A DNA stretch of 19,828 bases, taken from the IMG/VR virus record IMGVR_UViG_2874920711_000008; one strand, given 5' to 3'. The position numbers were made by a program, and so were the translations under genes. Under the pieces are notes generated by a model. It was not told the DNA's origin. It did not search any database and worked only from the letters and a program-made list of their open reading frames with translations. This document shows positions 1-16,903 of this stretch, piece by piece (positions within the stretch are counted from its first letter, which is position 1; every line of letters begins with the position of its first letter). The stretch comes from a virus (taxonomy: Duplodnaviria; Heunggongvirae; Uroviricota; Caudoviricetes).

Positions 1-813
1 TTACCAGCGGCCGGATGCGCCGCCCCCGCCGCTAAATCCGCCGCCACTTGAGCCTCCACCGGAACCGCTGTTGTCTGAATGATAACTTCTACCTGATGCT
101 CTTTTCTGAAGTACACATAAACAGGTAAAGACCATAAATATGGTGAAAGTAAAAAAGAAGGAAAATACAGCAATGGAAAAAGTTTTATCAGAGAACAGGA
201 ATAAATCTAAAAGATAGATTGCTGAAATACAGACTCCACTTTTACATGCGCGACAAAAATTACTGCCTTGATGAAAAAACCAGAAAGGGAAGAACATCAC
301 TGCAAATACCCAAAAAATAGCAAAGTAATAATGATCAGTGGAAGACGTTGATTCACTTTCTGAAGGATTAGCCGGATATTGGTGTTGTGAAGTGAGTTGG
401 TTATTCAAAGCGATTATAGCTAACTCTAATCCCTGAGCTAATTTTTGTTGTTTAAATGCGGGTATCATGTTGCTACGGATGATATCTCCAGCCAGAGCAT
501 CGGTTACCTTTTCTTCCAGCCCATAACCTACCTGGATGCGGACAGTGCGATCCGACCAGGCAACAATGATCAGTATCCCATCATTACGTTTGGCATCTCC
601 TAAACGCCAATTGTCAAAAACTCTTGTAGCATATTGTTCAATTGTCTCGTCTTTGGTTGTGGGAACAATTAATACAGCAATTTGCACTTGGGTATTATTG
701 AAAATAGATTCTAACTTGTGCGTCAGTTCTTTCTTTTCTTGTGAGTTTAAGCGTAAGCGCCCCATCAGCGACGTCTTGTGAAAATTGTCCTGTCTGGCAA
801 CAATCGCGCCCAT
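1..813 (-). CDS. ygcG: TPM-domain membrane protein (YgcG-like), 5'-truncated by the IS66 element; the first ~20 codons (753-813) and the ATG at 811-813 lie inside the IS left end
   Basis: 270-aa ORF ending at the window edge (stop = 1-3). From residue ~21 it has a TPM-domain-like core ([10 protein letters not shown]...[12 protein letters not shown]...[31 protein letters not shown]), then hydrophobic segments and a Gly-rich tail ([19 protein letters not shown]). No signal peptide or domain N-cap. Family assignment is from memory. Confidence 0.6.
753..763. repeat. IS66 left terminal inverted repeat (GTAAGCGCCCC)
   Basis: Exact 11-bp inverted match to 3449-3459; similarity beyond 11 bp is weak. 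Confidence 0.8.
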
Positions 814-834
814 CTATATTGATGGACACGAACG

Positions 835-1509
835 ATGAATTCCCAGACAACAAAAGATATTCCCTGCTTCCGTTCTTATTTGCCTGATGCCCTGCGTTTA
901 AGATTTGAAGATAAACTGACCATCCGGGCCATCGCTCAGCGTCTGGGTCTCAGTCATTCCACAATACATACGCTTTTTCAGCGATTTCTTGCATCCGGTA
1001 TCGCATGGCCATTGCCCGATTCAGTTTCATTCGCTCAACTTGACGCCATCCTTTATGCCAACAGAAAGAAGGAATTAACAGAGCCTCAAATCAGAGAAGG
1101 CTCATGGCGAAAAGAACGGCGAACCAGCTATAGCCGTGAATTTAAGGTCCGTCTGGCTAAGCAGGCGTTACAGCCTGGGGCTGTTGTTGCCCGGATCGCC
1201 AGAGAACACGATATCAATGATAACCTGCTGTTTAAATGGAAAAGCCAGTACGAGGACGGCTTACTGAGCGATGATGACATACAGGAATGCATGCCTGTCC
1301 CGGTGGCACTGACTGATACGCCGGAGCCGACCAGACCAGTTACAAATCCCTTCTGGCGTAACAAGCATGATGAGCGCCCTGAGGGGGCTCCCGGAAACGT
1401 CCCACGGTGCGAGCTGCATCTTAAATCAGGTGTGGTAAAACTGTTTGACCCTCTCACTCCGGAACTGTTACGGGCGCTAATCCGCGAAATGAAAGGGGGT
1501 ATCCGATGA
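835..1509 (+). CDS. tnpA: IS66-family accessory protein TnpA (orfA); true start may lie downstream of 835
   Basis: The C-terminal ~130 aa (RRTSYSREFKVRLAKQALQPGAVVARIAREHDINDNLLFKWKSQ...) look like IS66 orfA; stop overlaps the tnpB start (ATGA at 1506-1509). The N-terminal ~90 aa is an extra predicted HTH-like segment. No clear SD before 835. Confidence 0.65.
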   Translation: MNSQTTKDIPCFRSYLPDALRLRFEDKLTIRAIAQRLGLSHSTIHTLFQRFLASGIAWPLPDSVSFAQLDAILYANRKKELTEPQIREGSWRKERRTSYSREFKVRLAKQALQPGAVVARIAREHDINDNLLFKWKSQYEDGLLSDDDIQECMPVPVALTDTPEPTRPVTNPFWRNKHDERPEGAPGNVPRCELHLKSGVVKLFDPLTPELLRALIREMKGGIR

Positions 1510-1852
1510 TAACGCTGCCGACCGGTACCAGAATCTGGATCATCGCTGGCATCACAGATATGCGTTGTGGCTTCAATGGCCTGGCTTCGAAGGTGCAGAA
1601 CACGCTGAAAGATGACCCGTTCTCCGGGCATATCTTCGTCTTCCGGGGCCGCAGTGGCAAAATGGTGAAAATACTGTGGGCCGATCGTGACGGGTTATGC
1701 CTGTTCGCCAAACGCCTGGAACGGGGCCGCTTCGTCTGGCCGGTGACCCGGAAGGGAAAGTGCACCTGACGCCAGCTCAGTTATCCATGCTACTGGAGGG
1801 GATCGCGTGGCAACATCCCAAACGGACAGAACGGCCTGGCATCCGGATATAA
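1506..1852 (+). pseudogene. tnpB: IS66 TnpB, reading frame broken near 1750-1760
   Basis: MITLPTGTRIWIIAGITDMRCGFNGLASKVQ...ILWADRDGLCLFAKRLERGRFVWP matches the IS66 TnpB pattern. The ORF stops at 1769, but the next frame continues VHLTPAQLSMLLEGIAWQHPKRTERPGIRI to a stop at 1850-1852. The break sits in CCCGGAAGGG. Confidence 0.8.
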
Positions 1853-1871
1853 CCCGTGATAAAACAAGGGA

Positions 1872-3427
1872 ATGAACAATGAACTCCCCGATGATATTGA
1901 GCTGCTTAAAGCCATGTTGCGTAAGCAACAGAGTCGGCTTCGACAGTATGCCTGTCAGGTCGCGGGCTATGAGCAGGAAATTGAACGGCTGAAAGCGCAA
2001 CTCGACAGGTTGCGTCGTATGTTGTTCGGCCAGAGTTCAGAGAAAAAGCGTCATAAGCTTGAAAATCAGATCCGACAGGCAGAAAAACGACTGTCGGAAC
2101 TGGAAAACCGGCTGAACACAGCCAGAAATCTTCTGGAAGATGCATCGTCAGTCACAGATTCACCTGACACCAGTCCCCGTCAGAAAACCCGATCGCCAGT
2201 AAGCCTGAATCCCCGGGAGACACATCGCCTTCTGCCTGCTGAAACCAGTTGCCCGGCCTGTGGAGGTGTTCTGAAAGAAATGGGGGAAACAATCTCAGAG
2301 CAACTGGATATCATTAATACCGCCTTTAAAGTTATCGAAACCATACGTCCCAAACTGGCCTGTAGCCGGTGTGATGTCATCGTTCAGGCACCACTTCCCC
2401 CTAAACCGATCGAACGCGGTTATGCCAGTGCAGGGTTACTTGCACGGATCCTGGTCAGCAAATATATGGAACATATCCCTTTATATCGCCAGTCAGAAAT
2501 ATACGCGCGACAGGGCGTGGAGCTGAGCCGTAATACCATGGTGCGCTGGGTATCAGAAATGGCAGACAAACTCCGTCCTCTGTATATAGCGCTGAATGAC
2601 TATGTTCTGGAGGCAGGAAAGGTGCACGCAGATGACACTCCGGTGAAAGTACTGGCCCGGGGAACGGAAAGACGAAAACGGGTCGTCTGTGGGTATACGT
2701 CAGGGATGATCGTAATGCGGGTTCATCCCTGCCGGCAGCCGTCTGGTTCGCGTATTCGGCAGATCGCAAAGGAGAACATCCGCAGCTCCACCTGGCAAAG
2801 TATCAGGGCGTACTGCAGGCTGATGCCTATGCAGGTTATAACGTACTGTACGAAACGGGCCGGGTGAAGGAAGCCGGGTGCCTGGCCCACGCCCGCCGAA
2901 AAATCCATGACGAGGATGTGCGCCGTCCGACAGAAATGACTCAGGAAGCGCTCAGACGGATAGCAGAGTTATACGACATAGAAGCGGAGATACGTGGCAG
3001 TCCGGCAGAGGAACGGCTTGCAGTCAGAAAAGCCAGAAGCGTCCAGTTGATGCAGTCGTTGTACGACTGGATACAGTTGCAGAGGAAAACGCTGTCGAAA
3101 CATGCGGAGATGGCGAAGGCGTTCGACTATATCCTGAATCACTGGAATGCGCTGAACGAGTTCTGTCGTGACGGCTGGGTGGAAATAGACAACAACATCG
3201 GTGAAAACGCGTTACGATCGGTGGCGGTTGGAAGAAAAAATTATCTCTTTTTCGGCTCAGACAAGGGAGGAGAAAGTGCGGCGATCATCTACAGTCTGCT
3301 GGTCACCTGCAAACAGAACGAAGTGGAGCCGGAGGACTGGTTGCGCGAAGTGATCGAGAAGCTCAATGACTGGCCGTCGAACCAAGTGCATGAACTGCTG
3401 CCCTGGAACTTCTCGTCTGTAAAATAA
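1872..3427 (+). pseudogene. tnpC: IS66-family transposase TnpC, one frame break near 2655-2660
   Basis: The N-terminal ORF (1872-2867) is recognisable up to ...[11 protein letters not shown]; the C-terminal part continues in another frame as [62 protein letters not shown]... and joins ORF 2864-3427. The break is in a GCCCGGGG run. Combined length is ~518 aa. Confidence 0.85.
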
Positions 3428-3448
3428 TCCTTACGCTACGTACTTCTC

Positions 3449-3459
3449 GGGGCGCTTAC
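3449..3459. repeat. IS66 right terminal inverted repeat (GGGGCGCTTAC)
   Basis: Exact reverse complement of 753-763. Confidence 0.8.
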
Positions 3460-3460
3460 T

Positions 3461-3766
3461 GAAAAAGCAGAAACCAAAGGCGCGAAAGCCGCAAAGAACA
3501 GCGCTGCACAGGAAAACCCGGCACCGCTGGCAGACGTTATTGTGGCTGACGGTCAGGCGAATGAACCACGTCCGGCTGAAGACCCGGTTGCTGTACAGGG
3601 TGACGCCCCTGTCCGGCTGAACGTCAGGGCCGTGTCTGAAAACGGGTTCTGGCGCTGTGGCCGTTTCTGGTCACATATCGGTGAGGATGTGGCGGTGAGC
3701 GCTGCGGTTGCCACCCGCCTGATGGCAGAACCGAATCTGATTGTCCGGGAAGCGGAGAAAGGCTGA
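3461..3766 (+). pseudogene. 3' fragment of a phage structural gene (likely the gene upstream of Mu gp36), cut by IS66
   Basis: An open frame runs from the IS boundary (...EKAETKGAKAAKNSAAQENPAPLADVIVADGQANEPRPAEDPVAVQGDAPVRLNVRAVSENGFWRCGRFW...) to a stop at 3764-3766 that overlaps the next start. It has no credible native start; the tracked ORF begins at a GTG at 3542. Confidence 0.4.
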
Positions 3767-4203
3767 TGGGATACATCACGCAGGAAGACCTGTTACGCGC
3801 GGACGGCAATCTTGTCTGGAACATGGCGATTAACCGGGAAACCAACGGGCTGGATGAAGACAAAATCCGTCAGGCCATCAGTGATGCGGAAGCGGAAATT
3901 GATTCGTTTCTGTCCCGCCGCTACCAGCTGCCGCTGGGGGTGACGGAAATCCCGCGCCCGCTGCAACGCGTGGCGGTATCGCTGGCGTTTTACTGGTTAT
4001 CAGAGCGTGACAATCAAATCACGGAGCTGATCCAGAAACGCTACGACGACGCCATTAAAACCCTGCGTGAAATGGCGAACGGCACCCGTGACCTGGGCCT
4101 GCCGACGTATGCCACCCCGGCAGAAACCGACAACGGGAAAATTATTGTGGTGGGTGCCAATGCCCGGCTGTTCACCCGTAACAACCTGAAAGGGGTGCTG
4201 TGA
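3766..4203 (+). CDS. Mu gp36-like phage protein (DUF1320 family)
   Basis: 145-aa ORF, ATG overlapping the upstream stop (TGATG), just upstream of the tail genes. Family assignment is from memory. Confidence 0.55.
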   Translation: MGYITQEDLLRADGNLVWNMAINRETNGLDEDKIRQAISDAEAEIDSFLSRRYQLPLGVTEIPRPLQRVAVSLAFYWLSERDNQITELIQKRYDDAIKTLREMANGTRDLGLPTYATPAETDNGKIIVVGANARLFTRNNLKGVL

Positions 4204-4745
4204 TGGGGATTTCTGTACAGGTCAGCGGTGACCAGCGTCTGGAGGATATCCGCCGCGCCGTTGAAAAGCTGGCAGAGGGTTCATTGCAGTCAGAGCTGCT
4301 GGAAAGCATCGGTGCGGTGGTGGAATCACAGACCCGCCGCCGCATCATCGATGAGAAAACCAGTCCGGGTGGCGAACGCTGGCCGGACTGGTCTGACGGG
4401 TACAAAAAGACCCGCCACGGCAACCAGAGTCTGCTGCGCGGTGAAGGCCATCTGCTGGAGAGTATCCAGTACATCGTGGAAAACCGCGTGGTGCGTATCG
4501 GTTCACCGCTGGATTATGCCCGCATCATGAATGACGGCTTTTCCGGCAGCGTGCCGGTCAGCGCCCACAAACGGCTTATCTCGCAGTGTTTCGGGCGGGC
4601 GCTGAAATATCCGGTCTGGCAGACCGTCGGCGCACATCACCGCATGATGAACATTCCGCAACGTGAATTTCTGGGGCTGTCTTCTGCCAGCCAGCAGGAG
4701 CTGCAACAGGTTATCAGTCATTTCTGGAAGGAGGTTCTGCCATGA
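4203..4745 (+). CDS. Phage virion morphogenesis / tail completion protein (Mu G / P2 gpS-like family)
   Basis: ~180 aa with ...RRRIIDEKTSPGGERWPDWSDGYKKTRHGNQSLLRGEGHLLESIQY...REFLGLSSASQQEL, typical of this family. ATG at 4203 overlaps the upstream stop; stop overlaps the next start (ATGA at 4742-4745). Confidence 0.6.
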   Translation: MGISVQVSGDQRLEDIRRAVEKLAEGSLQSELLESIGAVVESQTRRRIIDEKTSPGGERWPDWSDGYKKTRHGNQSLLRGEGHLLESIQYIVENRVVRIGSPLDYARIMNDGFSGSVPVSAHKRLISQCFGRALKYPVWQTVGAHHRMMNIPQREFLGLSSASQQELQQVISHFWKEVLP

Positions 4746-5353
4746 CAGAACAACGCCCTGAACTGCGCACACCGGGGAGCACCGTTGCGGCCGCAGAGCA
4801 CATTGTGGCCTGGCTGCAGACGGCCCTTCAGGGGGACACCCCTGACCGGGCTGACGTGGTGGAGCGTCACATCGGCCAGTTCAACAGCCCGGATGAAGTG
4901 AAACGCTATCTGTCCGGTCGCACCGGCTGTATCCGTGTCGCGGCCCTGCGTGTCCGGGATATCAACCCGCGCGGCGGGCTGTCCGGTCTGGTCACCTGGG
5001 TGGCTTACATCATGGCGACGGATTCGTGGGGGTATTCCCGCGACGTGCGCTGTGAAGTGCTGGCCGGAAAGGTGATCAAACGCCTGCTGTCGTCGGATGC
5101 CACAGCGGGCATGGGGGCTGAACGCATGGCTGCTGATGTGCGGGCAGACAACATTTACTCCGTCAGCCTCGACGGGCTGGGTGTCACCATGTGGGCGGTG
5201 ACGTGGGAGCAGGAATTCCGGCTGGATGAAGAGATTGATCTCGCCGCGCTCCCGGATTTCCTGCGCCTCGGGGCGACACTGCGCAGCGGCGAACACACTG
5301 AAATTAACGACGTGATCCATGTACGGGGTGACGATGGAACAGAAACTGATTAA
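4742..5353 (+). CDS. Mu gp37-like phage protein (DUF1834 family)
   Basis: 203-aa ORF in the conserved position between the morphogenesis gene and the sheath gene; translationally coupled upstream. Confidence 0.5.
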   Translation: MTEQRPELRTPGSTVAAAEHIVAWLQTALQGDTPDRADVVERHIGQFNSPDEVKRYLSGRTGCIRVAALRVRDINPRGGLSGLVTWVAYIMATDSWGYSRDVRCEVLAGKVIKRLLSSDATAGMGAERMAADVRADNIYSVSLDGLGVTMWAVTWEQEFRLDEEIDLAALPDFLRLGATLRSGEHTEINDVIHVRGDDGTETD

Positions 5354-5518
5354 GCCAGCGCGGGAAAACGTCCGTGTCCGTAAACCGGATGGCGCACATT
5401 TATCCCGGAAGGGGAACGTCTCAACGTCTGCGCTTACTGGCTGCGCCGTGAAGCCGAGGGAGATGTGGAAATAACCACACTTCCGAAAAATAACAACAAA
5501 ACCAGAGGGAAAAAATAA
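5334..5518 (+). pseudogene. Small (~60 aa) phage protein upstream of the sheath gene, frame break near 5405-5415
   Basis: ATG at 5334 gives MEQKLIKPARENVRVRKPDGAHLS..., then the next frame reads EGERLNVCAYWLRREAEGDVEITTLPKNNNKTRGKK with a stop overlapping the sheath ATG (TAATG at 5516-5520). The break is in CCCGGAAGGGG. Confidence 0.3.
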
Positions 5519-6992
5519 TGTCGCTGGGTTCCATTCCTGATGATATCCGCGTCCCGCTTGTCTGGATCGATATCGACAATTCACAGGCGCTGGAGGGTGC
5601 ATCCGCGCAAAGCCGAAAAATTCTGGTCATGGGCCATGCGGTATCGTCCGGCAGCGCAGACGCCCTGTCACTGACCCGTATCACCAGTGACAGCCAGGCA
5701 GACCAGCTTTATGGCAAAGGGTCGATGCTGGCTGAAATGCTCAAAATGCTGCGTCGTGCCAACACGTACACGGAAACCTGGGCGATGCCGGTTGCCGCTC
5801 CTGAAGGCGCTGCCGCAAAAGCCACGCTGACCGTGCTGGGTACAGCGACCGAAGCCGGAACGGTGGCACTGCTGATTAACGGTGTGTCCGTTCAGGTGAG
5901 CGTGAGCGCCGGGGATACGAAGGAAAACATTGCAAAAGCCATTGCTGATGCGGTGACGAAAAAGCCTGCCACGCAGGTGGCCGCTGCGGTGAAGGATGAT
6001 GCCACGGATACCGTGGAGCTGACCGTGAACTGGCACGGCGTCACCGGCAACGGTGCCGACGTTCGCCTGAACTACCACACCGGTGAAGCCTTCCCGGCAG
6101 GTGTGAAGGTGACCGCAACCGCGTTTACCGGCGGCACCGGGACACCGGAAATGGCAGACGCCGTTGCGGCCATCGGCCCGGAGTGGTTTACCGATATCAT
6201 CGCCCCGTTCACCGACACGAAAAGCCTGAACACCCTGCGTGATGAACTGCTGAACCGCTGGGGCCGCTCAAAATGATGGAAGCGCAGCTGTGGACGGCGT
6301 TTTGTGGCACGCACGGGGAAACCGGCACGTTTGGTGAAACCCGCAATGACTGGCTGATTAGCTGCATCGGCACCAACCTGTCGCCGCATCCGGCGTGGAT
6401 GTGGGCCGCGTCATACGGCGCAACGGCAGCGTATCACCTTGCCATTGACCCGGCGCGTCCGCTTCAGACGCTGGTCCTGACCGGCATTCTGCCGCCTGCG
6501 CGTAATGTTCGCTGGGATATGCCGGAACGTAACCTGCTGCTGCATGACGGCATTGCCACGCACATGGTGGACGCCGGGGATAACGTCTGCATCGAGCGTG
6601 AAATCACCATGTACCGGGTTAACCAGTACGGTGATGCGGATGTGTCGTATCTTGATGTGCAGTCACCCGCCACGCTGGGCCGTATCCGTTACATCATTAA
6701 AAACCGTTTCTCGAACCGTTATCCGCGCCACAAGCTGGCGGATGATGACGTGCTGGACTCGCTGGATGCGGGGCAGCCGGTGATGACGCCGAAGCTGTGC
6801 ACTGCAGAGCTGCTGGATATCTGCCAGACCGAACTTCTCCCGGCGGGCCTTGTGGAAAACTTCAGCGATTACAGGGACACGCTTCAGGTGACACGCGACA
6901 GCAGCGATAAAAACCGCCTGAACTTTATCTGCCACCCGAATCTGGTGAACCAGTTGCGTGTGCTGGCAGGCCTGATTCAGTTCAAGCTTTAA
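5518..6992 (+). pseudogene. L: Contractile tail sheath protein (Mu L-like), split into two ORFs near 6270
   Basis: ORFs 5518-6276 (252 aa) and 6273-6992 (239 aa) are adjacent, same strand, together ~491 aa, followed directly by the tube gene; they join through a one-base frame change. Confidence 0.8.
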
Positions 6993-7001
6993 GGGGGCCA
7001 C

Positions 7002-7358
7002 ATGGCAAAAATTCTTGGCATGGCGACCATTCGCGTGAATGGCCGCGAAATTAAAACCGAGGGGAAATCCACGCTGAATCCGGGCGGCTTCAGCCGCACC
7101 CAGCATATGGGCGGCGGCAAGGTCTGGGGTATCTCCAGCAAGATGGCCTCGCCGTCCATCAAGGTAACCATTGCGGCGGCAGCGGATATGGACGTGATTG
7201 AAATCAGCAACTGGGAAGATGTCACGGTGATGTTCTACGGCGACAACGGCCTGAACTACATGATGACGGGTTCCGCCACGGATAACCCGGCAGAGCTGGA
7301 CGAGGATTCCGGCACCATCAGTGCCAACTTTATCGGTGAAAAATGCGTGAAGGTGTGA
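7002..7358 (+). CDS. M: Tail tube protein (Mu M-like)
   Basis: 118-aa ORF immediately after the sheath gene (MAKILGMATIRVNGREIKTEGKSTLNPGGFSRT...); size and position are canonical for a myovirus tube. Confidence 0.75.
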   Translation: MAKILGMATIRVNGREIKTEGKSTLNPGGFSRTQHMGGGKVWGISSKMASPSIKVTIAAAADMDVIEISNWEDVTVMFYGDNGLNYMMTGSATDNPAELDEDSGTISANFIGEKCVKV

Positions 7359-7359
7359 C

Positions 7360-7755
7360 ATGGCCGCAATGGAATTTGAACTGAAACACGGGCTTCTGAC
7401 CGGCAAAGGCACGGCAGATGAAACCCTGCATAAAACCGTGAAACTGCGCGAACTGACCGCCAGTGATGTGATTGATGCGCAACTGGCCGCAGAACGCGTC
7501 GTCATGGGCGGGAACGGAAAGGCGGTGGCCTACTGTTCTGAGGTGCTGATGGGACTGGAGATGATGCGCCGTCAGGTTGCGTCAATCGGTAATATCCCCG
7601 GCCCGCTGGACATGAAACAGCTGCGAATGCTCCACCCGGCAGACCTTGAGCTTATCAGCACGAAAGCGGCTGTGCTGGATGACATGCTTGAGGAGGTGGC
7701 AACGCGGGGGCGAACTGATGCCGCTGGCGTCGGCACTGATGAACCTGCTGGTTAA
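7360..7755 (+). CDS. Tail assembly chaperone (Mu gp41-like)
   Basis: 131-aa acidic ORF between the tube and tape-measure genes, the conserved chaperone position. Confidence 0.6.
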   Translation: MAAMEFELKHGLLTGKGTADETLHKTVKLRELTASDVIDAQLAAERVVMGGNGKAVAYCSEVLMGLEMMRRQVASIGNIPGPLDMKQLRMLHPADLELISTKAAVLDDMLEEVATRGRTDAAGVGTDEPAG

Positions 7756-7855
7756 CCTGTCTTCGCGATTCAGCATTCAGTACCTGGAACAGCTGCCCCT
7801 GCAGCAGTTGTTCCGCCTGATAAAGCAACTGGAGAAACAGCATGGCAACAGGTAA
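7646..7855 (+). CDS. Alternative-frame extension of the tail assembly chaperone (candidate frameshift product, G/GT-like)
   Basis: An ORF in the +1 frame overlaps the chaperone 3' end, encodes a helical-looking peptide (...LMPLASALMNLLVNLSSRFSIQYLEQLPLQQLFRLIKQLEKQHGNR) and ends just inside the tape-measure start (7842). Confidence 0.4.
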   Translation: MSLSARKRLCWMTCLRRWQRGGELMPLASALMNLLVNLSSRFSIQYLEQLPLQQLFRLIKQLEKQHGNR

Positions 7856-9682
7856 CCGTCTCAGCACGGAAATCATGATCAACCTTGCCGGGAACCTGAC
7901 CGCCAAAGCCCGGCAGTACGGTGCAAACATGTCGCAGTTCGCCCGGAACAACCAGAAGGCCATGCGCCTGGTCAAAGCCACAACGGAGGCTGCCGGGCGC
8001 AGTCTGGATGCGCTTGGCAACCGCTACACGGCGATGATTGCCGGGTTCGGTGGTGGTATGACCCTTAAAGGCCTGACAGATTTTGATGCGCAAATCCGCC
8101 GTGCGGGTACAAATGCAAAACTGACCGATGAGCAGGTATCCCGTTTAAGAAAAAACATCCGGGAAACCGCCAGAATGTCAGACATTCGCCTCAGTGCCCA
8201 GGTCTTACTGGAAGGCCAGGATGCACTGTATGGCCTGACCGGTAAGCCGGAATTTGTTGAAAAAAACATCCGCAATCAGGGCTGGCCACGCAGGCATTCG
8301 GGACTGCGCCACAGGATGCCGCGGCACTGATGGCACAGATGTCCGAAAAACAGATTGAAGCGCCTCAGGAGGTTGAAGGCATGTTCGACCGCTTCTACCA
8401 CCAGTTTTCCATTGGTTCGGTTGGTGTGGATCAACTGGCGCGTGTATCAGCAAAACTGTTTTCGATTTATACCGGTGGTGGCAAAGAGGCGATAGCCCAG
8501 TTGGGGCACTTGAACAGATGCTGGCAAAAACAACCGGCTCTGCGGATGAAGCGGTGACCGCGCTGAACAGTATCTGGAGTGAAGTCACCCGAAAAGACAA
8601 TATCAAGTTTCTGAAAAGAAACGGGGTTGATGTGCTTGATCCTGTCACAGGAAAACCCCGTCTGCCTTATGACGTAATCAGAGACGTTGTCAGGCGGGCA
8701 AAATTTAATGAGCAGAACTTGCAGGATGTTTTCGGGGATACTTCCATGCGTGGATTAAGGGCACTGCTCAGTGAAGACGCCCTTCAGCTAACAGAAAAAA
8801 TGATTTACGCCCCGGTTGAATCCGGTGCCATGAGAAAAGCTGCGGAGAAAAACGCCCGGAGTTTTCAGTCTGCGATGCAGTCCCTGAAGAATGAATATGA
8901 GGTTTTTGCTGAAAAAAATCTGGCAAAACCCGTTCAGGACCTGGCGGATGCCATCAACAGCGTGGACCAGAACTGGTTGCAGGTCGGTAAATATATGGCA
9001 ATTGCGCTGGGTGGCATTATCGCCGTACGTAAGACGTACAAGCTCGGTAAAACCATCCACGACATCATGAATCCCAAAGGGAAAGGCAAAGGGATACCCG
9101 GCGGTATTACGGATGTTTTCGGCTCCGGCGTGATGCCGGTGTATGTGGTCAATATGGGCAGTGGCGGGATGAACGGCAATGTCGGTGGTCTGCCGGATGC
9201 GCCGGATTCATCACGCAATCCCGTAACCCACGCAATCCACGAGGTCCGGGTAACCGCGGAGGTAATGCGGGCAAAGGCGCTGGCATCATCGCCGGTGCCC
9301 TGGAATTTTACGATTTTCTGACCACGCAATACGCCCTGCCGGGTGAGATTGACAGTCTTACAAAATCCGTGGCCGGTGATGCCAGCGCCAGCCCGTGGGA
9401 GCGCGAGTTCGCGCAACAAAGCCAGGATAACCAGAAAGCGCTCGAGTCCGTCTGGCGTAAGGTAACGGACTGGTTTAATTCGCTGGGTGACAAGAACATT
9501 GCCGACCCGCGACCGTGGGCAGGTATGCAACCCACACAGAATTATCCTTTCCTTCCGCAACAATTGCAGGGGAAATCCGTGTGGTGGTGGAAGGTGATGC
9601 CCGCGTGAAAAGCGTCAGAGTGGATCAACCCGGCGTCAGACTCAGTGCGCAGGCTGGCGTCACCAGCGTGGAGCAGGGTTAA
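7842..9682 (+). pseudogene. Tail tape measure protein (Mu gp42-like), split into at least 4 ORFs
   Basis: Co-linear ORFs 7842-8330, 8330-8557, 8518-9321 and 9369-9608 in frames 0, 2, 1, 0, plus a final stretch ...VVVEGDARVKSVRVDQPGVRLSAQAGVTSVEQG ending at 9680-9682 (TAATG overlap with the next gene). Total ~613 aa. The adjacent frame reads cleanly across the first break (...GLATQAFGTAPQDAAALMAQMSEKQ...). Confidence 0.75.
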
Positions 9683-10953
9683 TGACAACGAGCAACGGTA
9701 AATGGGACGGGCTGCGCGACGCCTCGTTTCGTGGCGTCCCCTTCTTTCTGGTGGATACGGAGGGCACCGGTGGTCGTCGTGCCATTCCCCGTGCTTATCC
9801 CCGGCGTGAAACCGCCTGGACGGATGATAACGGGGCCGTTCCGGGGCAACAGCAGATTAACGCAAAGCTGCCAGGTAAAAACTTCCGGGATGATTTAAAC
9901 GCCCTTTTAGATGCGCTCAATACCCCGGCCCGGCGAGCTTGTCCACCCGTGGTTCGGGATACAGACCGTACAGGTTGGCAAGGTCACCCATCGCCTCTGC
10001 ACGGAGGAAGACGGCATTGCGTATGTCACCTTTGAAGTGTTTGAGGCAGGCGAGCGCCTGTTCCCGTCTGCGGCGGATAACACGCAGCAGGAAGTGCTGA
10101 CAGGCATTGATGCGGTGAAAGCCGCCATTGACGATGGCGACTGGTTCGGCGCACTCGACGGGCTGGGTGACATGGCCGACAGTTTTCTGGCCGATATGGA
10201 AAACCTTGTGGCTAACCTGCCCACGTTACCGGCAGCACTGAATCAGTGGATGGACAGGCTGAAGCATTTTAAGGCGATGGCCGGAACCCTCATTGCCACA
10301 CCGGGGCGTCTGGTCAGTGAGCTGTCAGCACGGGTGGAAGATATTGCGGGCCTTGTGACGGAACCACCCGAAGCACTGGCGGTTTACACGACATTACGCA
10401 ACCAGTGGGCCGGAGAACGTGCCAGGCAGATTGCCACCGGCGCACTGCCGGAAGATATCACCGTGAAGCCCGGCAGCGTGGCAGACGGCAACCCGGCTTT
10501 GCCATCGGGCTGTCACCGGATTATCAGCCGGTATCTGACAGCCTGCAAAAGAACATTGACGACTTCCGCCAAGTGGTTGTGCTGGGAGCCCTGCTGGGAC
10601 AGGCCAGTGCCGTGGCCTCGATGACGTTCGATACCCGTGATGCGGCGTTATCTGCCGGTGACACGCTGGCGGCTGAACTGCATGAGCAGGCGGTGGCGGC
10701 GGTGGAAAACAACCAGCGGACATTGTGGCGAACGCTGCGCGATTTACGGCAGGCCGTGATTACGGATGCCCGCGAGCGTGCCGCCCGTCTGCCGGAAACC
10801 CGGCAGGTGACGCTGACCACAACCACCTCTGCCGCATTGCTGGCATGGCGCGAGCATGGTGACACACGCCGACGGGATGAAATCGTGCAGCGTAACCGCC
10901 TGCGTCATCCGTCATTCATCCTACCGACGCAACCTGTGGAGATCACCGACTGA
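9682..10953 (+). pseudogene. N: DNA circularisation protein (Mu N-like), frame breaks near 9925 and 10490
   Basis: The N-terminus MTTSNGKWDGLRDASFRGVPFFLVDTEGTGGRRAIPRAYPRRE matches the DNA-circulation N-terminal family, and ...PGELVHPWFG... continues in the next frame. Three ORFs (9682-10035, 9911-10624, 10405-10953) join through breaks in CCCCGGCCCGG and AACCCGGCTTT. Confidence 0.75.
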
Positions 10954-12018
10954 TGGAATCCGTGATTCTTACCGTTGACGGCAAACTGTGGGAAGGCTGG
11001 ACGGAAATGTCCGTCAGCCGTTCCCTGAAGGCGATTGCCGGTGAGTTTGAACTCAGTGTGACAACCCGCTGGTCAGCGGCGGCACCGCGCGTGATTCGTG
11101 AGGGGCAACCCTGCACGGTCAGGCTGGGCGCAGATACCGTGCTGACGGGGTATATCGATGATTTTATTCCCGGCTATGAGGCTGAAAACGTGGAGATTCG
11201 CGTCATGGGGCGCGATAAAACCGGCGACCTGGTGGACTGCTCTGTGGTGCATTCGTCCGGGAAATGGAAAGGCGTGCGGCTTGAACAGGTGGCGGCTGAT
11301 GTCTGCCGCCCGTTCGGGATAACCGTCATCACGGAAACCCCGACCGGGGAGGCATTTGCGTCTGTCGTTCTGGAACAGGGTGAAACGGGCTTTGAACTGC
11401 TCGACCGGCTGGCAAAACAGCGCGGCGTTCTGCTGACGTCTGACGGCGCGGGTAACCTGATTATCACCCGCGCCTCTTCCGTTCGCGCGGGCGTGTCACT
11501 GGTGCTGGGAAAAATATCCTCGCCGCCCGTGGGCGCTTCAGCTGGCGGGAGCGTAACAGCCAGTACATCATCAAGGGCACCACCAGTGCCCGTGGCAAAC
11601 TGTGGGACAGCCAGCCTGCCCGATGGTGGGCGGTCGCCAGTACATCACCGAAGCCCCGGAAATTAACCGTTACCGCCCGCGCATTCTGGTCAATGAAGAC
11701 AGCCTGACCGTGGGCGGGCCAGCATTCGCGGGAATGGTACAAAGCCCGGATGCTGGGAGAGTCCCGCACGACGGAAATCACGGTGGCAGGCTGGCGCGAA
11801 CAGGGCGACAGCGGCCCGCTGTGGCAGACCAACCGCCTTGTCGATATCGACGACAGCATTCAGAACCTGAAAACCACCTGGCTGATATCCGGGGTGACAT
11901 GGACGGATGGCGCACAGGGAGGATGACGGTTCTGGCGCTGGTTCCGCCTGAATCACTGGACATGCCGGAAATGAAAGCGAAGACGAAAAAAACAAAGGCG
12001 GTGGCCACATGGGATTAA
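10953..12018 (+). pseudogene. P: Tail/baseplate protein (Mu P-like, gp44), several frame breaks between ~11500 and ~11930
   Basis: A 237-aa N-terminal ORF, then plausible protein sequence alternating between frames (ENILAARGRFSWRERNSQYIIKGTTSARGKLWDSQ; RQYITEAPEINRYRPRILVNEDSLTVGG; EWYKARMLGESRTTEITVAGWREQGDSGPLWQTNRLVDIDDSIQNLKTTWLISGVTWTDGAQGG; MTVLALVPPESLDMPEMKAKTKK). Stop at 12016-12018. Confidence 0.6.
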
Positions 12019-12544
12019 ACGCAATTGCCCGCCGCCTGCGACTGATGGTTGACCGCGCTGTTGTCCGCCTGGTGTCTGACGGTCTGGCACGGCAGAACCT
12101 GCAAATTCAGACGCTGGCAGATGCCACCGATGACGACGTGGAACGCTTCCAGAACTACGGGTTTACGTCCGTTCCGCCGGAAGGTTCTGAAGCCATTGTG
12201 ATGGCCGTTGGCGGACGGCGTGACGGGCTGGTTGCCATCGCGGTGGAAGACAAGCGATGTCGCCCGAAAGGACTGTCCCCGGCGATGTCAGGGTGTATCA
12301 CCGGGACGGCAAATCACACATCACCCTGAAGGAAAACGGCGTCATTGAAATCACAGGAGAACAATTAGACTTTTCAGGGAAAACGGTAAATCTCACTGCC
12401 GACGAACTGCTGAATATTATCGGTAAACAAATGAAATTCGTCGGTCCCTGTGAATTCACTGAAGATGTCAGAATCAAGGGTAAATCATTCAGCGAACACA
12501 TTCATAAGGACGGCGACAATGAGAATACATCACCGCCCGTATGA
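12009..12544 (+). pseudogene. Baseplate assembly/spike protein (Mu gp45-like), one frame break near 12250-12300
   Basis: ORFs 12009-12329 and 12257-12544 are co-linear and read as one protein (MGLNAIARRLRLMVDRAVVRLVSDG...PGDVRVYHRDGKSHITLKENGVIEITGEQLDFSGKTVNL...). Confidence 0.7.
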
Positions 12545-12991
12545 CGACAGAAATCCGCTGGAATAACATGCTCTCACGGGGTGACATCACCGTCACCCAT
12601 AACGGCCTCTCACGGGATGAGGGCTGGTCACTCAGGTTCTTATCTGCCTTTTCACCGATGCCCGCGCTGATGACGATGATGTCATTCCTGACGGCTCCGG
12701 CGACCCGCGCGGCTGGCCGGGCGACACGTACAGCGATTTTTCGTGGGTTCCCGCCTGTGGCTGCTTGAGCGTGAAAAGCTGACGGAAGATGTCCGCCTGC
12801 GCGTGGAAGATTACGCGCGGCTGTCCATGCAGCCGCTTCTGCGTGCCGGTTACGCCCGTAACGCCACCGTCACGGCCAGCATCATCATTCCTGACCGTAT
12901 TGCCTTTCTGGTGGTGTTAACCCGCCCGGACAAAACCACACTCAGAATCGAAATCACCCGTCGATGGGAGGCCACCATTAATGCCGTATGA
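12541..12991 (+). pseudogene. Baseplate protein (Mu gp46-like, GP46 family), two frame breaks
   Basis: N-terminus MTTEIRWNNMLSRGDITVTHNGLSRDEG, a middle piece in another frame (...DDDVIPDGSGDPRGWPGDTYSDFSW), and a C-terminus in the third frame (GSRLWLLEREKLTEDVRLRVEDYARLSMQPLLRAGYARNATV...). Confidence 0.65.
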
Positions 12992-13953
12992 AATCCCCAC
13001 GCTGGGCAAACTGATTGCCGACGGCGAAAAAGATATTGCGTATGAACTCGGCCTGCAAAAGCTGCCGCCTGTCAGTGTTGAGCAGGCGCTGAACGTGTCA
13101 TTCAGCAGTCAGGTCCGGGATTTATACGACCATCAGAGCTGGATTAAGGACCAGATAATCCCGTCCACCACGTCTGATGATGAAACCATTATCAAAACAG
13201 CAAAGTATGAAGGCGTTATCCGCAAGCAGGCCACCTTTGCCAGCGGGCGGGTGACCTTCACCAGTCAGTCCCCCTTCCGGCAGAAACCCGGATGCAGTCC
13301 GACACGAACCAGGTGTATCAGGTACTCACGTCCGGCGAGGTGCAGGACGGCGAGGTCACCGTCATCGTGCAGGCTGAAGAAGCCGGTGTGGAGGGCAATC
13401 TTGCTGCCGGTGCCGTACTCACCCTGCTGTCCCCGCTGCCCGGAACGGCCAGCACAGGCGCGGTGGCTGAAGGTGGCATCACCGGTGGCGCAGACACTGA
13501 ATCCATCGCAGCGCTGCTGGACCGTCTGCTGTATGTGCGCCGCAATCCACCGACAGGCGGCGCGTTGCATGACTACGTGATATGGGCGCGTGAAGTGCCG
13601 GGCGTCAGCCGCGCGTGGGCGTGGGATGCATGGCACGGCCCGGCACGGTCGGGCTGGCATGGCTTTATGATGACCGGGAAAACATCGTGCCAACCCGCGA
13701 AGACCTGAAGACAATGGAGCAGTATCTGTTCTGCCACAAACACCCGGCCACGGGCGTGATGGTGGGTAAACCGGGCGGCATTGAGGTCTGGCCGGTACAG
13801 GTCAGGCTGAAGAAAGTCAGCATATCCATCCGTCTGACACCGGACAGCCTGGCGAACAGGAGCGCCGTCCGGGCAAACCTGACCGCGTTACAGAAGACAC
13901 TGGCACCCGGTCAGACGCTGCCGGGCGGTTTACCTGTATTGATGGCGTCATGA
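12981..13953 (+). pseudogene. Baseplate J-like protein (Mu gp47-like), split into three ORFs
   Basis: ORFs 12981-13580, 13292-13708 and 13615-13953 are co-linear in frames 0, 2, 1; the real-looking parts (MPYEIPTLGKLIADGEKDIAYELGL...; ...EVQDGEVTVIVQAEEAGVEGNLAAGAVLTLLSPLPGTA...; ...LKTMEQYLFCHKHPATGVMVGKPGGIEVWPVQ...) follow one another. Confidence 0.7.
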
Positions 13954-14051
13954 CACCATTAATCAGCGAACGCACCCGTGAGCTGGAATGCCTGCTGAAG
14001 CATTACCGGCTGGCGGGCACGGAATATGAATATTATTACACCGGAGAATAA
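13950..14051 (+). CDS. Short ORF (33 aa, MTPLISERTRELECLLKHYRLAGTEYEYYYTGE) between the baseplate J gene and the fibre gene
   Basis: ATG overlaps the gp47 stop (ATGA); its own stop lies 3 bp before the fibre ATG. It sits where a Mu gp48-type gene would be but is far too short. Coding status is uncertain. Confidence 0.25.
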   Translation: MTPLISERTRELECLLKHYRLAGTEYEYYYTGE

Positions 14052-14162
14052 TTTATGTTTTATGTGGATAACCCGACGGGTGTGCCGGTAATGCCACCTG
14101 TCGCGGCTGAATTAAGCAAAACAACGCTTTATTTCACCGAAGGCGGGAACGGTATTCCGCCC

Positions 14163-14172
14163 ACGTATCCGG
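14163..14172. repeat. Left copy of the 10-bp direct repeat CGTATCCGGG (target-site duplication of the IS4-family element)
   Basis: Identical 10-mer lies immediately outside both CTGA...TCAG termini (14163-14172 and 15472-15481). Confidence 0.7.
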
Positions 14173-15471
14173 GCTGAGGGATCCCCACAAAATTACTGCT
14201 AATAAACCAGCACCATATTTCGGTAGGTTCTGGACAGATGGTTTAGAACTGTGCTCAGTACTGTTCGTCTTAAAATAAGTGGCGAGTGTCGAAGAACATT
14301 CTTCGCTAACGTCAGATATGAGATAACCCGCCGGGATTTAATGCTGTTAGCCTGATATTTCAGGTGTAACCCTTTATTTTCAGCGTGATAACCGAGTAAC
14401 CACATTACGATAGTGCTCAACGTTGCCAGCAGACTCAGAACCAGAATTCTTCCTGTTGAACGACTTTTGCTGGCCCGAAGACCAAATCCGAAGCGCCCGT
14501 TCTTTTCATCACGAAAGTTTTGCTCTATCTGCATTCGCCGACTGTATAACTTGATGATTTCTCGCGCTCTGAAGTCATTTGTACTGCTGAAGATCAACCA
14601 GGCTTCTTTTGCTGATTTGCTCTGTTCTTTGTCTGTTTTGTTTAAACCACTCTGACCTTTCGAACGTTTCTTTTTTCGCCCTTTTGCCGATTTCTTATAG
14701 GTGTAAAAATGCCCCCGGATGCTTTTTTTCCTTTCTTTAACCAGCCTTCCAGCCCCATATATTCCGGTGTTTTACATTCAGGGCTATCCGACACTTTTAA
14801 CCATCTTTCAGGCGCGTTATCGAGGCAATACTGAACGTTATTTCTGATCCGACCAATAAAATCCCAGCCCAGAGAAGTAATATGGTGAAACCATGCGCTC
14901 TGAAATCCAGCATCCGTGACAATAATAACCCTGGCATCGGGGGCAGGGATTGAGCAAGGGAATCAAGGAAATCATGTTGTATCAATGGATTATTTTGTTT
15001 TTCAGAAGGAACAACCTTACTCAATAACGGAATGGAACGCCCGTCACACAGAAGGCTGGCACGAAGAACATGATGCTCCTGGAGGGATAGCCACTCCAGT
15101 CTACGGCTATTACACATAAAGATAACTGCCGTGTCAGCATTGAAGTGATATTCCTGAAAATCATTGGAATATCGCGATGGAGCGCCTCATTACCCATGAG
15201 GCGATCAATACGTTTGCTCTTATTCTTAACTTGTGCATTACCCGGGAAAAAACGTCCGATACTGGTCAGCGTCAGAGATGCTCCGTTGATTAACGCCACT
15301 GTGGCATCCATCAGGGCATTTTGTCGGTACTGATGAAATGGTGCTAAGGCATCCCGGAAGAAATTCTGACATACTTTATGAACAGGCATAGCAGTGATCT
15401 CATTGAATTGTTGGCACAAATCAGTAGATCACATAATGCTATGTCTGTCTCGTTTTCTGGGGATTCCTCAG
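14173..15471 (-). mobile_element. IS4-family (IS10-like) insertion sequence, 1299 bp, inserted in the tail fibre gene
   Basis: Termini CTGAGGGATCCCC (14173-14185) and GGGGATTCCTCAG (15459-15471) are inverted repeats with one mismatch and resemble the IS10 outside end (CTGAGAGATCCCC). Flanked by the 10-bp direct repeat. Contains a minus-strand IS10-like transposase. Confidence 0.8.
14199..15389 (-). pseudogene. IS4-family (IS10-like) transposase, in at least 4 frame segments
   Basis: Minus-strand segments align in order to IS10 transposase: N-terminal (...TLTSIGRFFPGNAQVKNKSKRIDRLMGNEALH...VDWS), middle (...HVLRASLLCDGRSIPLL...VIIVTDAGFQSAWFHHITSLGWDFIGRIRNNVQY...) and C-terminal (...IFSSTNDFRAREIIKLYSRRMQIEQNFRDEKNGRFGFGLRASKSRS...). 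One break sits at a T7 run (14723-14729). Confidence 0.8.
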
Positions 15472-15481
15472 CGTATCCGGG
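15472..15481. repeat. Right copy of the 10-bp direct repeat CGTATCCGGG
   Basis: See 14163-14172. Confidence 0.7.
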
Positions 15482-16372
15482 GCCGGACTGGTTTAATATT
15501 ATTCAGTCTGAATTACTGGAAATACTCCGGCAGGCAAATATCAAACCGGATAAAAACACAACCGACCAGATTATGACAGCGCTGAAAAAACTGTTTATTA
15601 CGAACAGTGGTTCAGCCGGAGCTATTGCCGGATTAACCGGTCAGAATAATACATTCCCTTATTTTACCGGCAAAGACACAATGGCATTAACACCGCTCAG
15701 TGCGTTTGTGCGCAGTATTCTCGGGAAAAACAGCGCCAGTGAATTTATTAAAGCAATCGGCCTGTCACCAGACATCCTTTTATCAAAAGGACCGGTGACA
15801 GCATTAAGCAGTACAGCACAGGGCAATGCAGGACTTCAGATGTATGAAGTGTACAACAACGGCTATCCCACAGCTTATGGCAATGTTCTGCATCTGAAAG
15901 GCGCGGCAGCATCTGGCGAAGGCGAACTGCTGATTGGCTGGAGTGGCACGAGCGGTGCACATGCTCCGGTTTATATTCGCTCAAGGCGTGATACCACCGA
16001 TGCAGTCTGGTCTGAATGGGCGCAGGTGTTTACATCAAAAGACAGCTTCAACGCAGCATCCGCCACAAAACTACAGACCCCACGCAAAATTAACGGTACG
16101 GCATTTGATGGCACCAGAGATATCACCATCAGCAGCACCGATTCTGGTGCAGTACGTGATTTCAGATACACCAGCGAAGTGTTTCACAATCCCGGTGGTA
16201 ACGAAATTTCCTGGGTATTCCGCGCGCCTTCAGGGTGTATTTTGTCAGGTATTAACGTTCAGGAAACTGGCAAAAGCTCTGCGGATAACATCGGGGGTGT
16301 GTATTACAAACAAACTCAGATTTATATCAATGGCGGATGGCGCACGGTATCCGGCTAATTAAGGAGAAAATA

Positions 16373-16903
16373 ATGGAACTCAGAAACGTCACGCGTTATT
16401 ACCCGGAAGAAATGCCTTATGGTGAAAACATTCAGTATTTCCGCAGTGAAGACGGACAGGATTTTTATGAATCACTGGATAAATTCACGAAGAAATACAA
16501 ATTATGTATTCACCCGGAAACCGGCGTGATTTATTCAATGGCAGAAGACGTGTCTCGTCTTTATCCTGTTGGTTTTACCATTGTGGAAGTGGATGAGCTG
16601 CCGGAGGGTTTTGACATCGAAGCCAACTGGTATTACCGGGATGGCGAAGTACTGCCAGTTCCTGTTGATTATTCGAAACTGGCAGAAAAGCAACGTCAGC
16701 GCTTGCTGAATGAAGCAAAGGAAATCACTTCCGACTGGAAAACCAAGCTGGAGCTGGGCACCATCAGCGACGATGACAAAGTCCGTCTTACGCAGTGGAT
16801 GGAATATATCAAAGCGGTGAAGGTGCTGGATTTAAGCACTGCTACCGATGAAATCTCCTTTGATGCCATCAACTGGCCGGAGCGTCCCGATGCCGCAGCT
16901 TAA
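16373..16903 (+). CDS. Tail fibre assembly chaperone (Tfa; Mu U / P2 G-like)
   Basis: AAGGAG SD 7 bp upstream of the ATG at 16373; ~176 aa; directly downstream of the fibre gene; Tfa-like features (...PEGFDIEANWYYRDGEVLPVP..., C-terminal ...DEISFDAINWPERP). Confidence 0.75.
   Translation: MELRNVTRYYPEEMPYGENIQYFRSEDGQDFYESLDKFTKKYKLCIHPETGVIYSMAEDVSRLYPVGFTIVEVDELPEGFDIEANWYYRDGEVLPVPVDYSKLAEKQRQRLLNEAKEITSDWKTKLELGTISDDDKVRLTQWMEYIKAVKVLDLSTATDEISFDAINWPERPDAAA

Follow-up and report, generated by a model that had tools for sequence, protein, structure and literature searches.

A defective ISSfl3 copy between ygcG and a Mu-like prophage remnant as the probable endpoint of a 55-kb inversion in a Shigella dysenteriae-type chromosome

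Introduction

In the window, the whole 19,828-nucleotide stretch of DNA analyzed here, an IS66-family element separates a host gene from the late genes of a Mu-like prophage, both flanking genes are truncated at their 5' ends, and the 8-bp sequences on the two sides of the element differ. The question is how these two flanks came to be joined. The original prediction attributed the junction to an IS-associated deletion or recombination that removed the start of the host gene together with the left half of the prophage.

With 100% identity, the window matches CP026824.1:3337787-3357614, a Shigella dysenteriae-type genome whose assembly carries about 2 indel errors per kb, many of them in homopolymers. 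Among 5,426 complete Escherichia coli genomes searched, none had ISSfl3 in ygcG and none had a ygcG-IS-phage join. The comparison therefore had to rest on Shigella assemblies, which were found via exact-protein look-ups (comparison loci are cited below by L numbers). The non-inverted sister genome CP027027.1 was used both as the parental state and as the better assembly. The literature searched yielded nothing on this locus beyond one sister record, cited as S. boydii.

Results and discussion

The element and its flanks

The terminal inverted repeats of IS66-family elements start with GTAAGCG according to ISfinder descriptions. The element in the window (Table 1) has a start of this type, the perfect 11-bp sequence GTAAGCGCCCC being found at 753 and, inverted, ending at 3459, and it has the gene order of the family, namely, tnpA (HTH), tnpB (IS66 Orf2-like), and tnpC (DDE_Tnp_IS66 plus zinc finger). 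GTAAGCGCCCC has only these two matches in the window, even with one mismatch allowed, but the 11-mer matched two or more times in 12 of 200 shuffles, so the repeats are statistically weak by themselves. The boundaries are secure because of homology: dozens of ISSfl3 copies from E. coli and EIEC stop at 752/753 and 3459. Copies named ISSfl3 in the RefSeq annotation of the best matches share the ends and the tnpA-tnpB-tnpC layout at 99.5 to 99.8% identity over the whole element. Unlike the named ISSfl3 (~2754 bp), however, the window copy has a 44-bp deletion in tnpC, which gives 2710 bp in CP027027.1 versus 2707 bp in the window, and its flanks come from two insertion sites. An IS66-family element with perfect 11-bp ends had thus been correctly recognized, and the reported lack of a target-site duplication holds as well, since homologous copies confirm the boundaries between which GTTTAAGC (745-752) and TGAAAAAG (3460-3467) are unequal.

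The left flank had been described as an AT-rich host gene cut at its 5' end, and it proves to be the 3' part of ygcG (GC, ~41%; phage part, 54 to 64%). It is 97% identical to E. coli ygcG (L002, 4001-4752), and the first 103 nt of the intact E. coli gene are absent from the window. The remnant can be read as a 270-aa fusion ORF (1-813) with its start ATG within the left end of the IS, the protein being named SD15574_3086 (Shigella dysenteriae 155-74). The right flank is indeed a GC-rich, 5'-truncated phage gene, lacking only ATGAG, but it is a small hypothetical ORF rather than the structural gene that had been proposed; in intact relatives, it comes after the Mu-like major head gene gpT.

Table 1. 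Features of the window, with positions, strand, and basis of assignment
Feature	Position	Strand	Basis or remark
ygcG, 3' 752 nt (~250 codons + stop); TPM-domain gene	1-752	-	Pfam TPM_phosphatase, E = 1.8e-35
GTTTAAGC, one of the two 8-bp target repeats from the original ISSfl3 insertion into ygcG	745-752		
ISSfl3 (IS66 family), defective	753-3459	+	99.5-99.8% identity to copies annotated ISSfl3
Left terminal inverted repeat core, GTAAGCGCCCC	753-763	+	
tnpA, 224 aa, intact	835-1509	+	Pfam HTH_23, HTH_Tnp_1
tnpB	1506-1852	+	Pfam TnpB_IS66, E = 4.6e-31
tnpC	1872-3427	+	Pfam DDE_Tnp_IS66, zf-IS66, LZ_Tnp_IS66, DDE_Tnp_IS66_C
Right terminal inverted repeat core, GTAAGCGCCCC	3449-3459	-	
Phage 103-aa hypothetical ORF without its first 5 nt (ATGAG)	3460-3766	+	Intact relatives: ATGAG followed by TGAAAAAGCAGG
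Late part of Mu-like prophage: gp36, virion morphogenesis, sheath, tube, tape measure, baseplate, tail fibres, com, mom	3460-19828	+	Pfam
Second IS (IS4 family, IS10-like ends) in tail-fibre gene	14174-15471		Gap versus intact prophage

Reciprocal junctions and gene order

In CP027027.1, the two flanks of the window IS belong to two separate ISSfl3 copies, which have identical sequences and lie 56,311 bp from each other in inverted orientation. At the first site (ygcG3'-GTTTAAGC-IS-GTTTAAGC-ygcG5'-queE), GTTTAAGC is found on both sides of the IS, whereas intact E. coli has it once; this is a simple insertion into ygcG with the 8-bp target duplication typical of ISSfl3. The second site lies in a Mu-like prophage remnant within the metV type VI secretion (T6SS) island and reads T6SS-left, phage left end ...CTCTAAAT-IS-TGAAAAAG, phage late genes.

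The source genome combines these flanks differently. To the window junction, GTTTAAGC-IS-TGAAAAAG, there corresponds a reciprocal junction 55 kb to the left (L049, 3273377-3293718), which reads T6SS, phage left end ...CTCTAAAT-IS-GTTTAAGC-TACTCGTAAG... and continues after the IS into the 5' end of ygcG, queE, ygcE, and yqcE. This record was reached by a homology search with the truncated T6SS ORF, which led to the source genome variant P0003; of its two sides, one is collinear with L029 and the other with L004. The two ISSfl3 copies of CP026824.1 are opposed (3280477-3283180, reverse; 3338539-3341245, forward), and the flanks are swapped reciprocally, from GTTTAAGC/GTTTAAGC and CTCTAAAT/TGAAAAAG to GTTTAAGC/TGAAAAAG and CTCTAAAT/GTTTAAGC. 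The copies are separated by 55,358 bp in the source and by 55,398 bp in the parent (56,311 bp less a 913-bp IS present only there); these lengths agree within 40 bp, and within the interval the outermost ~10 kb on either side were read.

Taken from these comparisons, the window IS is very probably one endpoint of a ~55-kb chromosomal inversion between two inverted ISSfl3 copies, and the mismatched flanks would result from recombination between them. Because the copies do not differ, the crossover cannot be placed within them. The order ygcG-eno-pyrG-...-metZWV-T6SS in E. coli XYEH3783, where the phage-free site CCGTGAGAACTATC is found, matches the arrangement of CP027027.1, and a perfect 8-bp duplication is possible only as the primary insertion state, which together argue that the CP027027.1 arrangement has the ancestral polarity. 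The original prediction had suggested looking at related genomes and at other copies of this IS with reciprocal flanks. Both comparisons were informative: the former yielded the interrupted ygcG and the prophage copy of CP027027.1, and the latter yielded the junction 55 kb away.

A join of the wrong flanks over the 2.7-kb repeat during assembly, the true genome being parental, is very unlikely, even though CP026824.1 contains many homopolymer indels and the NCTC assembly GCA_900618165.1 has both junction types. In that assembly, the parental junction is on a low-quality 6-kb contig (L037), whereas the window-type junction is in a 2.7-Mb contig (UYIS01000022.1; L005) and was thus obtained independently of CP026824.1. 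In addition, both reciprocal junctions are present in CP026824.1 and are mutually consistent, and long reads normally span a 2.7-kb repeat.

A single IS-mediated deletion, by adjacent deletion or by recombination of direct copies, would have taken the ygcG start, adjoining host DNA, and the prophage's left half at once. It would account for the lack of a target duplication and for the 5' truncation of both flanking genes, and the prophage does lack 18.3 kb; nevertheless, we regard it as extremely improbable. The ygcG start was moved, not deleted as had been supposed, because it is found at the reciprocal junction in the same chromosome, where it carries GTTTAAGC and is followed by queE-ygcE-yqcE. 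A deletion would also have removed eno and pyrG, given that eno...barA lie between ygcG and the T6SS genes in E. coli, but both adjoin the ygcG remnant of the window. Finally, the prophage loss is already present in the non-inverted genome. On these sequence comparisons, the deletion model is refuted for the window junction and would hold only for an older deletion within the prophage. Recombination, the other process that had been invoked, is retained in the form of the inversion.

The prophage remnant

The phage part of the window, which reaches the window end, is 98% identical to the FDAARGOS_943 prophage. Phage_Mu_Gp36 and Phage_tail_S were found in the window by Pfam, and related gene calls include Gp41_Mu, Gp45, GP46, Gp48, and Mom. 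The T6SS island lies ~115 bp past mom, beyond an IS4. As in the intact Mu-like prophages of E. coli STEC346 and FDAARGOS_943, the late genes are in the order gp36, sheath, tube, tape measure, baseplate, fibres, and com/mom, TATTCAAGATA-type motifs are repeated at both ends, and the phage would have inserted without site preference, duplicating a few host base pairs. The phage-free target site CCGTGAGAACTATC is uninterrupted in 988 E. coli genomes; at the occupied site, AGAA is found on both sides, with only 4 bp readable as duplicated versus the Mu-type expectation of 5 bp. Unlike the intact prophages, this one is a remnant with two further IS insertions and with its ends now 55 kb apart.

Sized against the intact STEC346 relative, the stretch replaced by ISSfl3 is 18,323 bp long and contains the genes for the repressor, ner, A, B, gam, mor, lysis, terminase, portal, protease, and gpT. 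With transposase A/B and the repressor absent, the remnant does not qualify as a functional prophage. The FDAARGOS_943 prophage was dropped as the intact reference for deletion size, its left end being unrelated to that of the remnant. The IS-TGAAAAAG junction is common to many Shigella assemblies (L010, L017, L028-L037). In the non-inverted genome CP027027.1 and in other Shigella genomes, 208 bp of the phage left end is kept, followed by ISSfl3 and then by the late genes, an arrangement which indicates that the prophage deletion is older than the inversion. By this comparison, the 18.3-kb loss is a separate, older IS-associated deletion common to several Shigella genomes; the left half of the prophage is gone, as had been stated, but not through the event that formed the window junction.

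The IS4-family copy in the tail-fibre gene (DDE_Tnp_1 gene calls in L021, L024, and L026) has a 9-bp direct repeat, CGTATCCGG. This is a simple insertion of the usual kind, and it provides an internal control.

Transposase genes and mode of recombination

The intact tnpA product (HTH_Tnp_1, E = 9e-24) was found as an exact protein in 1798 blocks of a public assembly collection, and the genomes returned were all S. flexneri type. In the window, tnpB reads as 87 aa, with one G lost from a G-run at ~1749 (IS position 998), versus 115 aa in CP027027.1 (gene calls in L004 and L029). For tnpC, DDE_Tnp_IS66 was found with E values of 1.2e-42 and 2e-28 and zf-IS66 with 2.3e-17. An alignment of seven IS copies places the 44-bp deletion at 2209/2210, and two more one-base homopolymer losses are located at ~2175 and ~2656. 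The one-base frameshifts in tnpB and tnpC are probably homopolymer assembly errors. Biological decay was rejected as their cause, as they are single-base losses in homopolymers that are missing from better assemblies, and the apparent frameshifts in the CP026824.1 record should be read mostly as sequencing artefacts. By contrast with these, the 44-bp deletion makes tnpC a genuine pseudogene, judged from the aligned copies, and the window ISSfl3 would therefore be unable to make its own transposase.

Two inverted copies with exchanged flanks could also be produced in one step by intramolecular replicative transposition, in which a lone ISSfl3 in ygcG attacks the prophage. TnpC could be provided in trans by some 20 further ISSfl3 copies (19 sites in one EIEC chromosome). 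Such an event predicts the same 8-bp target with its adjacent phage DNA at both junctions (...GTTATGAG TGAAAAAG-IS). The reciprocal junction instead has the phage left end ...CTCTAAAT, which is 18.3 kb away in the intact phage, the parental genome already has both copies, and the 44-bp deletion breaks tnpC in both of them, leaving this route exceedingly unlikely. For the inversion by recombination between resident copies, the 2.7 kb of 100% identity and flank patterns unlike those of transposition point to host recombination, presumably RecA dependent rather than mediated by the transposase.

The history would thus begin with transposition of a Mu-like phage into a T6SS-island gene beside the metV tRNA genes. 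An ISSfl3-associated deletion then took 18.3 kb of prophage, with the repressor, transposase A/B, lysis, terminase, portal, and head genes, leaving the 208-bp left end, ISSfl3, and the late genes. An identical ISSfl3 entered ygcG at a distance of ~56 kb, oriented oppositely, and produced the 8-bp duplication GTTTAAGC. Homologous recombination between the identical inverted 2.7-kb copies would finally have flipped the segment between them (the ygcG 3' part, eno, pyrG, relA, barA ... metV, and the left part of the T6SS island), after which each IS copy would keep one flank from each parent. Comparison of the sequences documents the last three of these four steps.

Relation to known Shigella inversions

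Inversions mediated by IS are reportedly evident from comparison of the S. flexneri 5b and 2a chromosomes. In a set of E. coli and Shigella genomes, 103 of 114 reconstructed inversions fall on Shigella branches (PMC8072062). The ygcG/T6SS case is of the same kind, in that the segment is bordered by two copies of one IS in inverted orientation and flanks are exchanged reciprocally with no apparent loss of DNA; it is small (55 kb), and one of its endpoints falls within the remnant of a prophage in a T6SS island. This particular inversion was not found described in the literature searched. IS-driven inversion is a known, routine kind of rearrangement in Shigella, and the present locus adds one more documented case and changes no concept.

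Across strains, the IS-phage junction is joined to at least four left flanks: ygcG, the phage left end ...CTCTAAAT (L028, L029, and L037), a T6SS gene directly (L017), and the bamA-uppS region (L030). A frequent, reversible flip between the identical inverted copies, with cultures of this Shigella lineage holding both orientations, seems unlikely. If it did occur, the IS copy would count as a hot spot of recombination and might even act as a switch, splitting and rejoining the halves of the T6SS island.

As a worked example, the locus suggests that mismatched IS flanks should first be read as recombination between copies and that a reciprocal junction should be sought before a deletion is inferred. 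For annotation, 55 kb separates the two pieces of ygcG, and the Mu-like prophage is a dead remnant with separated ends. The metV T6SS island has been broken three times: the phage, ISs, and the inversion each interrupt it.

Boundaries and flanks of the ISSfl3 copy in the window

The element between ygcG and the Mu-like prophage is a catalogued insertion sequence, ISSfl3 (IS66 family). Direct reading places GTAAGCGCCCC at 753 to 763 and its reverse complement ending at 3459, and a pattern search of the window tolerating one mismatch returned two sites only. Because two 11-mer matches also occurred in 12 of 200 shuffles, making the pair statistically weak by itself, the boundaries were set by homology: alignments to dozens of copies that carry the annotation “IS66-like element ISSfl3” (99.5 to 99.8% identity), drawn from 5,426 complete E. 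coli genomes, end at 752/753 and 3459. The original observation of perfect 11-bp ends is confirmed, and direct reading agreed that the 8-mers outside them differ (GTTTAAGC on the left and TGAAAAAG on the right).

The truncated host gene predicted on the left is ygcG, which encodes a TPM domain; its 3′ part (97% identity to E. coli) lacks the first 103 nt. An exact-protein look-up with the ygcG fusion ORF returned six contigs, including CP026824.1, whose positions 3337787-3357614 are 100% identical to the window; GenBank lists the protein as hypothetical, from Shigella dysenteriae 155-74, and a sister record in the accession series of CP026824.1 is cited as S. boydii. The right flank is, as predicted, a GC-rich phage gene truncated at its 5′ end: a 103-aa ORF lacking its first 5 nt, which in intact Mu-like prophages comes after the major head gene gpT. 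Phage sequence extends to the window end, as far as com/mom, and GC content rises from 41% left of ISSfl3 to 54 to 64% on the phage side.

Features of the window
Feature	Coordinates	Strand	Basis or remark
ygcG, 3′ part	1-752	-	
ygcG fusion ORF	1-813	-	270 aa
tnpA	835-1509		Pfam, IS66 gene
tnpB	from 1506		Pfam, IS66 gene
tnpC	1872-3427		Pfam, IS66 gene; two pieces
Phage sheath gene	5518-6992		
Phage tape-measure gene	7842-9321		
Second IS	14174-15471		IS4 family, ~1.3 kb

Reciprocal exchange of ISSfl3 flanks

In the sister genome CP027027.1, ISSfl3 lies in ygcG as a simple insertion between ...GAGTTTAAGC and GTTTAAGCTACTCG..., with the ygcG 5′ end and queE next, and intact E. coli ygcG (...GAGTTTAAGCTACTCG...) has the target 8-mer once. 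Set against the intact gene, a comparison proposed with the original prediction, this is a typical IS66 insertion that duplicated 8 bp of target. A second ISSfl3 in CP027027.1 is joined at its right end to the phage as in the window (TGAAAAAGCAG) and at its left end to ...CAGTATTGGCTCTAAAT, downstream of the T6SS genes clpV and vgrG. These two copies are identical by sequence comparison, inverted, and, from locus coordinates, 56,311 bp apart.

The truncated T6SS ORF adjoining the second copy, used as a homology query, led through the singleton protein P0003 to the reciprocal junction in CP026824.1 (L049, 3273377-3293718). Its order is dotU, ompA, hcp, clpV, vgrG and following genes, ...CTCTAAAT, ISSfl3, GTTTAAGCTACTCGTAAG..., the ygcG 5′ end, queE, an IS630-type element, ygcE, and yqcE, collinear with the T6SS/IS locus of CP027027.1 on one side and with its ygcG::IS locus on the other. 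The other proposed check, a search for an IS copy with reciprocal flanks, succeeded within the source genome, and the flanks have been exchanged reciprocally between the two states.

8-mers flanking the two ISSfl3 copies (left / right)
Genome	Copy at ygcG 3′ part	Other copy
CP027027.1 (parental)	GTTTAAGC / GTTTAAGC	CTCTAAAT / TGAAAAAG
CP026824.1 (recombinant; first copy in window)	GTTTAAGC / TGAAAAAG	CTCTAAAT / GTTTAAGC

The copies in CP026824.1 are likewise inverted and 55,358 bp apart, the parental figure being 55,398 bp after subtraction of a 913-bp IS found only there. Exchanged flanks, inverted copies and matching spacing together indicate that the step at the window junction was an inversion and that the ygcG start was relocated; the predicted deletion of that start does not stand, as the ygcG 5′ end is present at L049. 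E. coli XYEH3783 shows the order ygcG, eno, pyrG, mazG, relA, barA, ..., mltA, three tRNA-Met genes, and the T6SS island (tssB ... hcp, clpV, vgrG ... tssM ...), which is kept in CP027027.1 but not in CP026824.1. In addition, no state other than that of the primary insertion can carry a perfect 8-bp duplication. On both counts the window arrangement is the derived one.

Host homologous recombination between the 2.7-kb identical inverted copies would yield the inversion and is the best match to so exact a reciprocal exchange. A one-step inversion driven by transposase would leave one and the same 8-bp target, with neighbouring phage DNA, at each of the new junctions, whereas the reciprocal junction bears phage DNA that is 18.3 kb distant in the intact phage; the existence of a parental two-copy state and the broken tnpC of both recombining copies also speak against it. 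Misassembly of the window junction is unlikely, because both CP026824.1 junctions are mutually consistent and the independent NCTC assembly (GCA_900618165.1) carries a window-type junction in a 2.7-Mb contig. IS-bounded inversions are well described in Shigella genomes, and this case does not depart from the known kind; a survey placed 103 of 114 reconstructed inversions on Shigella branches and noted lineage-specific expansion of IS66 elements (PMC8072062).

Sequence errors and a lesion in ISSfl3

CP026824.1 has many single-base gaps when compared with the other assemblies; it differs from UYIS01000022.1, the 2.7-Mb NCTC contig, by 20 gaps and 2 mismatches across 10.8 kb, or about 2 indel errors per kb. 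Split genes include pyrG and relA, which lie close to the window but not in it, and the sheath and tape-measure genes. The window ISSfl3 differs from the CP027027.1 copy solely by three 1-base losses in G/C runs (~1749, ~2175, and ~2656); the apparent frameshifts there and in the two phage genes are homopolymer losses relative to both CP027027.1 and UYIS01000022.1. For this reason, the shortened tnpB and some of the disruption in tnpC are probably assembly errors.

A 44-bp deletion in tnpC, at 2209/2210 between TCCCCGGG repeats, is a real lesion. It is common to the window copy and its recombination partner in three assemblies, but CP026836.1 and PSSP01000001.1 lack it in their orthologous copies at the phage junction. 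Occurrence in both partners but not in the orthologues suggests gene conversion or in-trans mobilisation of a defective copy.

An older deletion in the Mu-like prophage

The 208 bp left of the T6SS-side ISSfl3 contain three TATTCAAGATA-type motifs, matching in reverse complement those found past mom at the right end of the phage, and are the left end of the phage. A synthetic “empty site” built from both host flanks found a one-piece match in 988 E. coli genomes; in XYEH3783 it reads CCGTGAGAACTATC, within a hypothetical gene of the T6SS island, which argues that the phage transposed into the island. AGAA is present on both sides of the phage.

An intact relative in E. coli STEC346 has a left end 99.5% identical to that of the remnant. 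There, the TGAAAAAG site and the base at which the remnant stops, the two positions adjoining ISSfl3, lie 18,323 bp apart, so that ISSfl3 replaces 18.3 kb of prophage encoding repressor, ner, transposase A and B, gam, mor, lysis, terminase, portal, protease, and gpT. No target duplication was found at the prophage-side ISSfl3 site; the loss may have occurred via adjacent deletion or via recombination between two direct ISSfl3 copies. CP027027.1, which is not inverted, shares this loss, as do CP026836.1 and the small NCTC contig, and the junction of ISSfl3 with TGAAAAAG by itself occurs in at least a dozen assemblies. The loss is an older event, separate from the inversion. The predicted loss of the left half of the prophage was thus real, but it did not form the window junction, since CP027027.1 already has it. 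The checks first proposed were the right ones, and the deletion reading is replaced by an inversion plus an older deletion.

Other junctions and insertions

In CP026875.1 (locus L017, 5605-5640), the ISSfl3 left end meets T6SS host DNA right at the edge of the phage (...CCGTGAGAA, then GTAAGCG), and the whole 208-bp phage left end is absent. In PSSP01000001.1 (locus L030, 1-7157), the IS-phage junction has bamA-rseP-cdsA-uppS and an IS4 on its left (flank CAGTCACT), which indicates a further, much larger rearrangement through the same copy. Joined to such other left flanks in other strains, the phage-junction ISSfl3 has recombined repeatedly.

The NCTC assembly contains both junction types: the inverted ygcG-IS-phage order in UYIS01000022.1 and the parental one (T6SS, phage left end, IS, phage) on UYIS01000006.1 (6,089 bp; ~30 indels in 5 kb). 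This may reflect a mixed culture or an un-inverted minority subpopulation.

The second IS in the window has IS10-like ends (CTGAGGGATCCCC... and ...GGGGATTCCTCAG) and interrupts a phage tail-fibre gene; with its clean 9-bp direct repeat, CGTATCCGG, it is, unlike ISSfl3, an ordinary simple insertion. Just beyond 19828, ~37 bp past the mom stop, an IS4 occupies the same right-end position in the two Mu-like copies that the source genome has, beside typA/glnA and beside the T6SS island, and is absent from three other strains (L022, L026, and L027); these may be another flank-exchanging IS pair. In the phage left-end remnants of two strains, two different ISs, one IS630-type and the other IS5-like (913 bp), have inserted at a CTAG at positions no more than 3 bp apart (CP026836.1 locus, 6963-6990; CP027027.1 locus, 6082-7010), which fits the known CTAG/TA target preference of these families.
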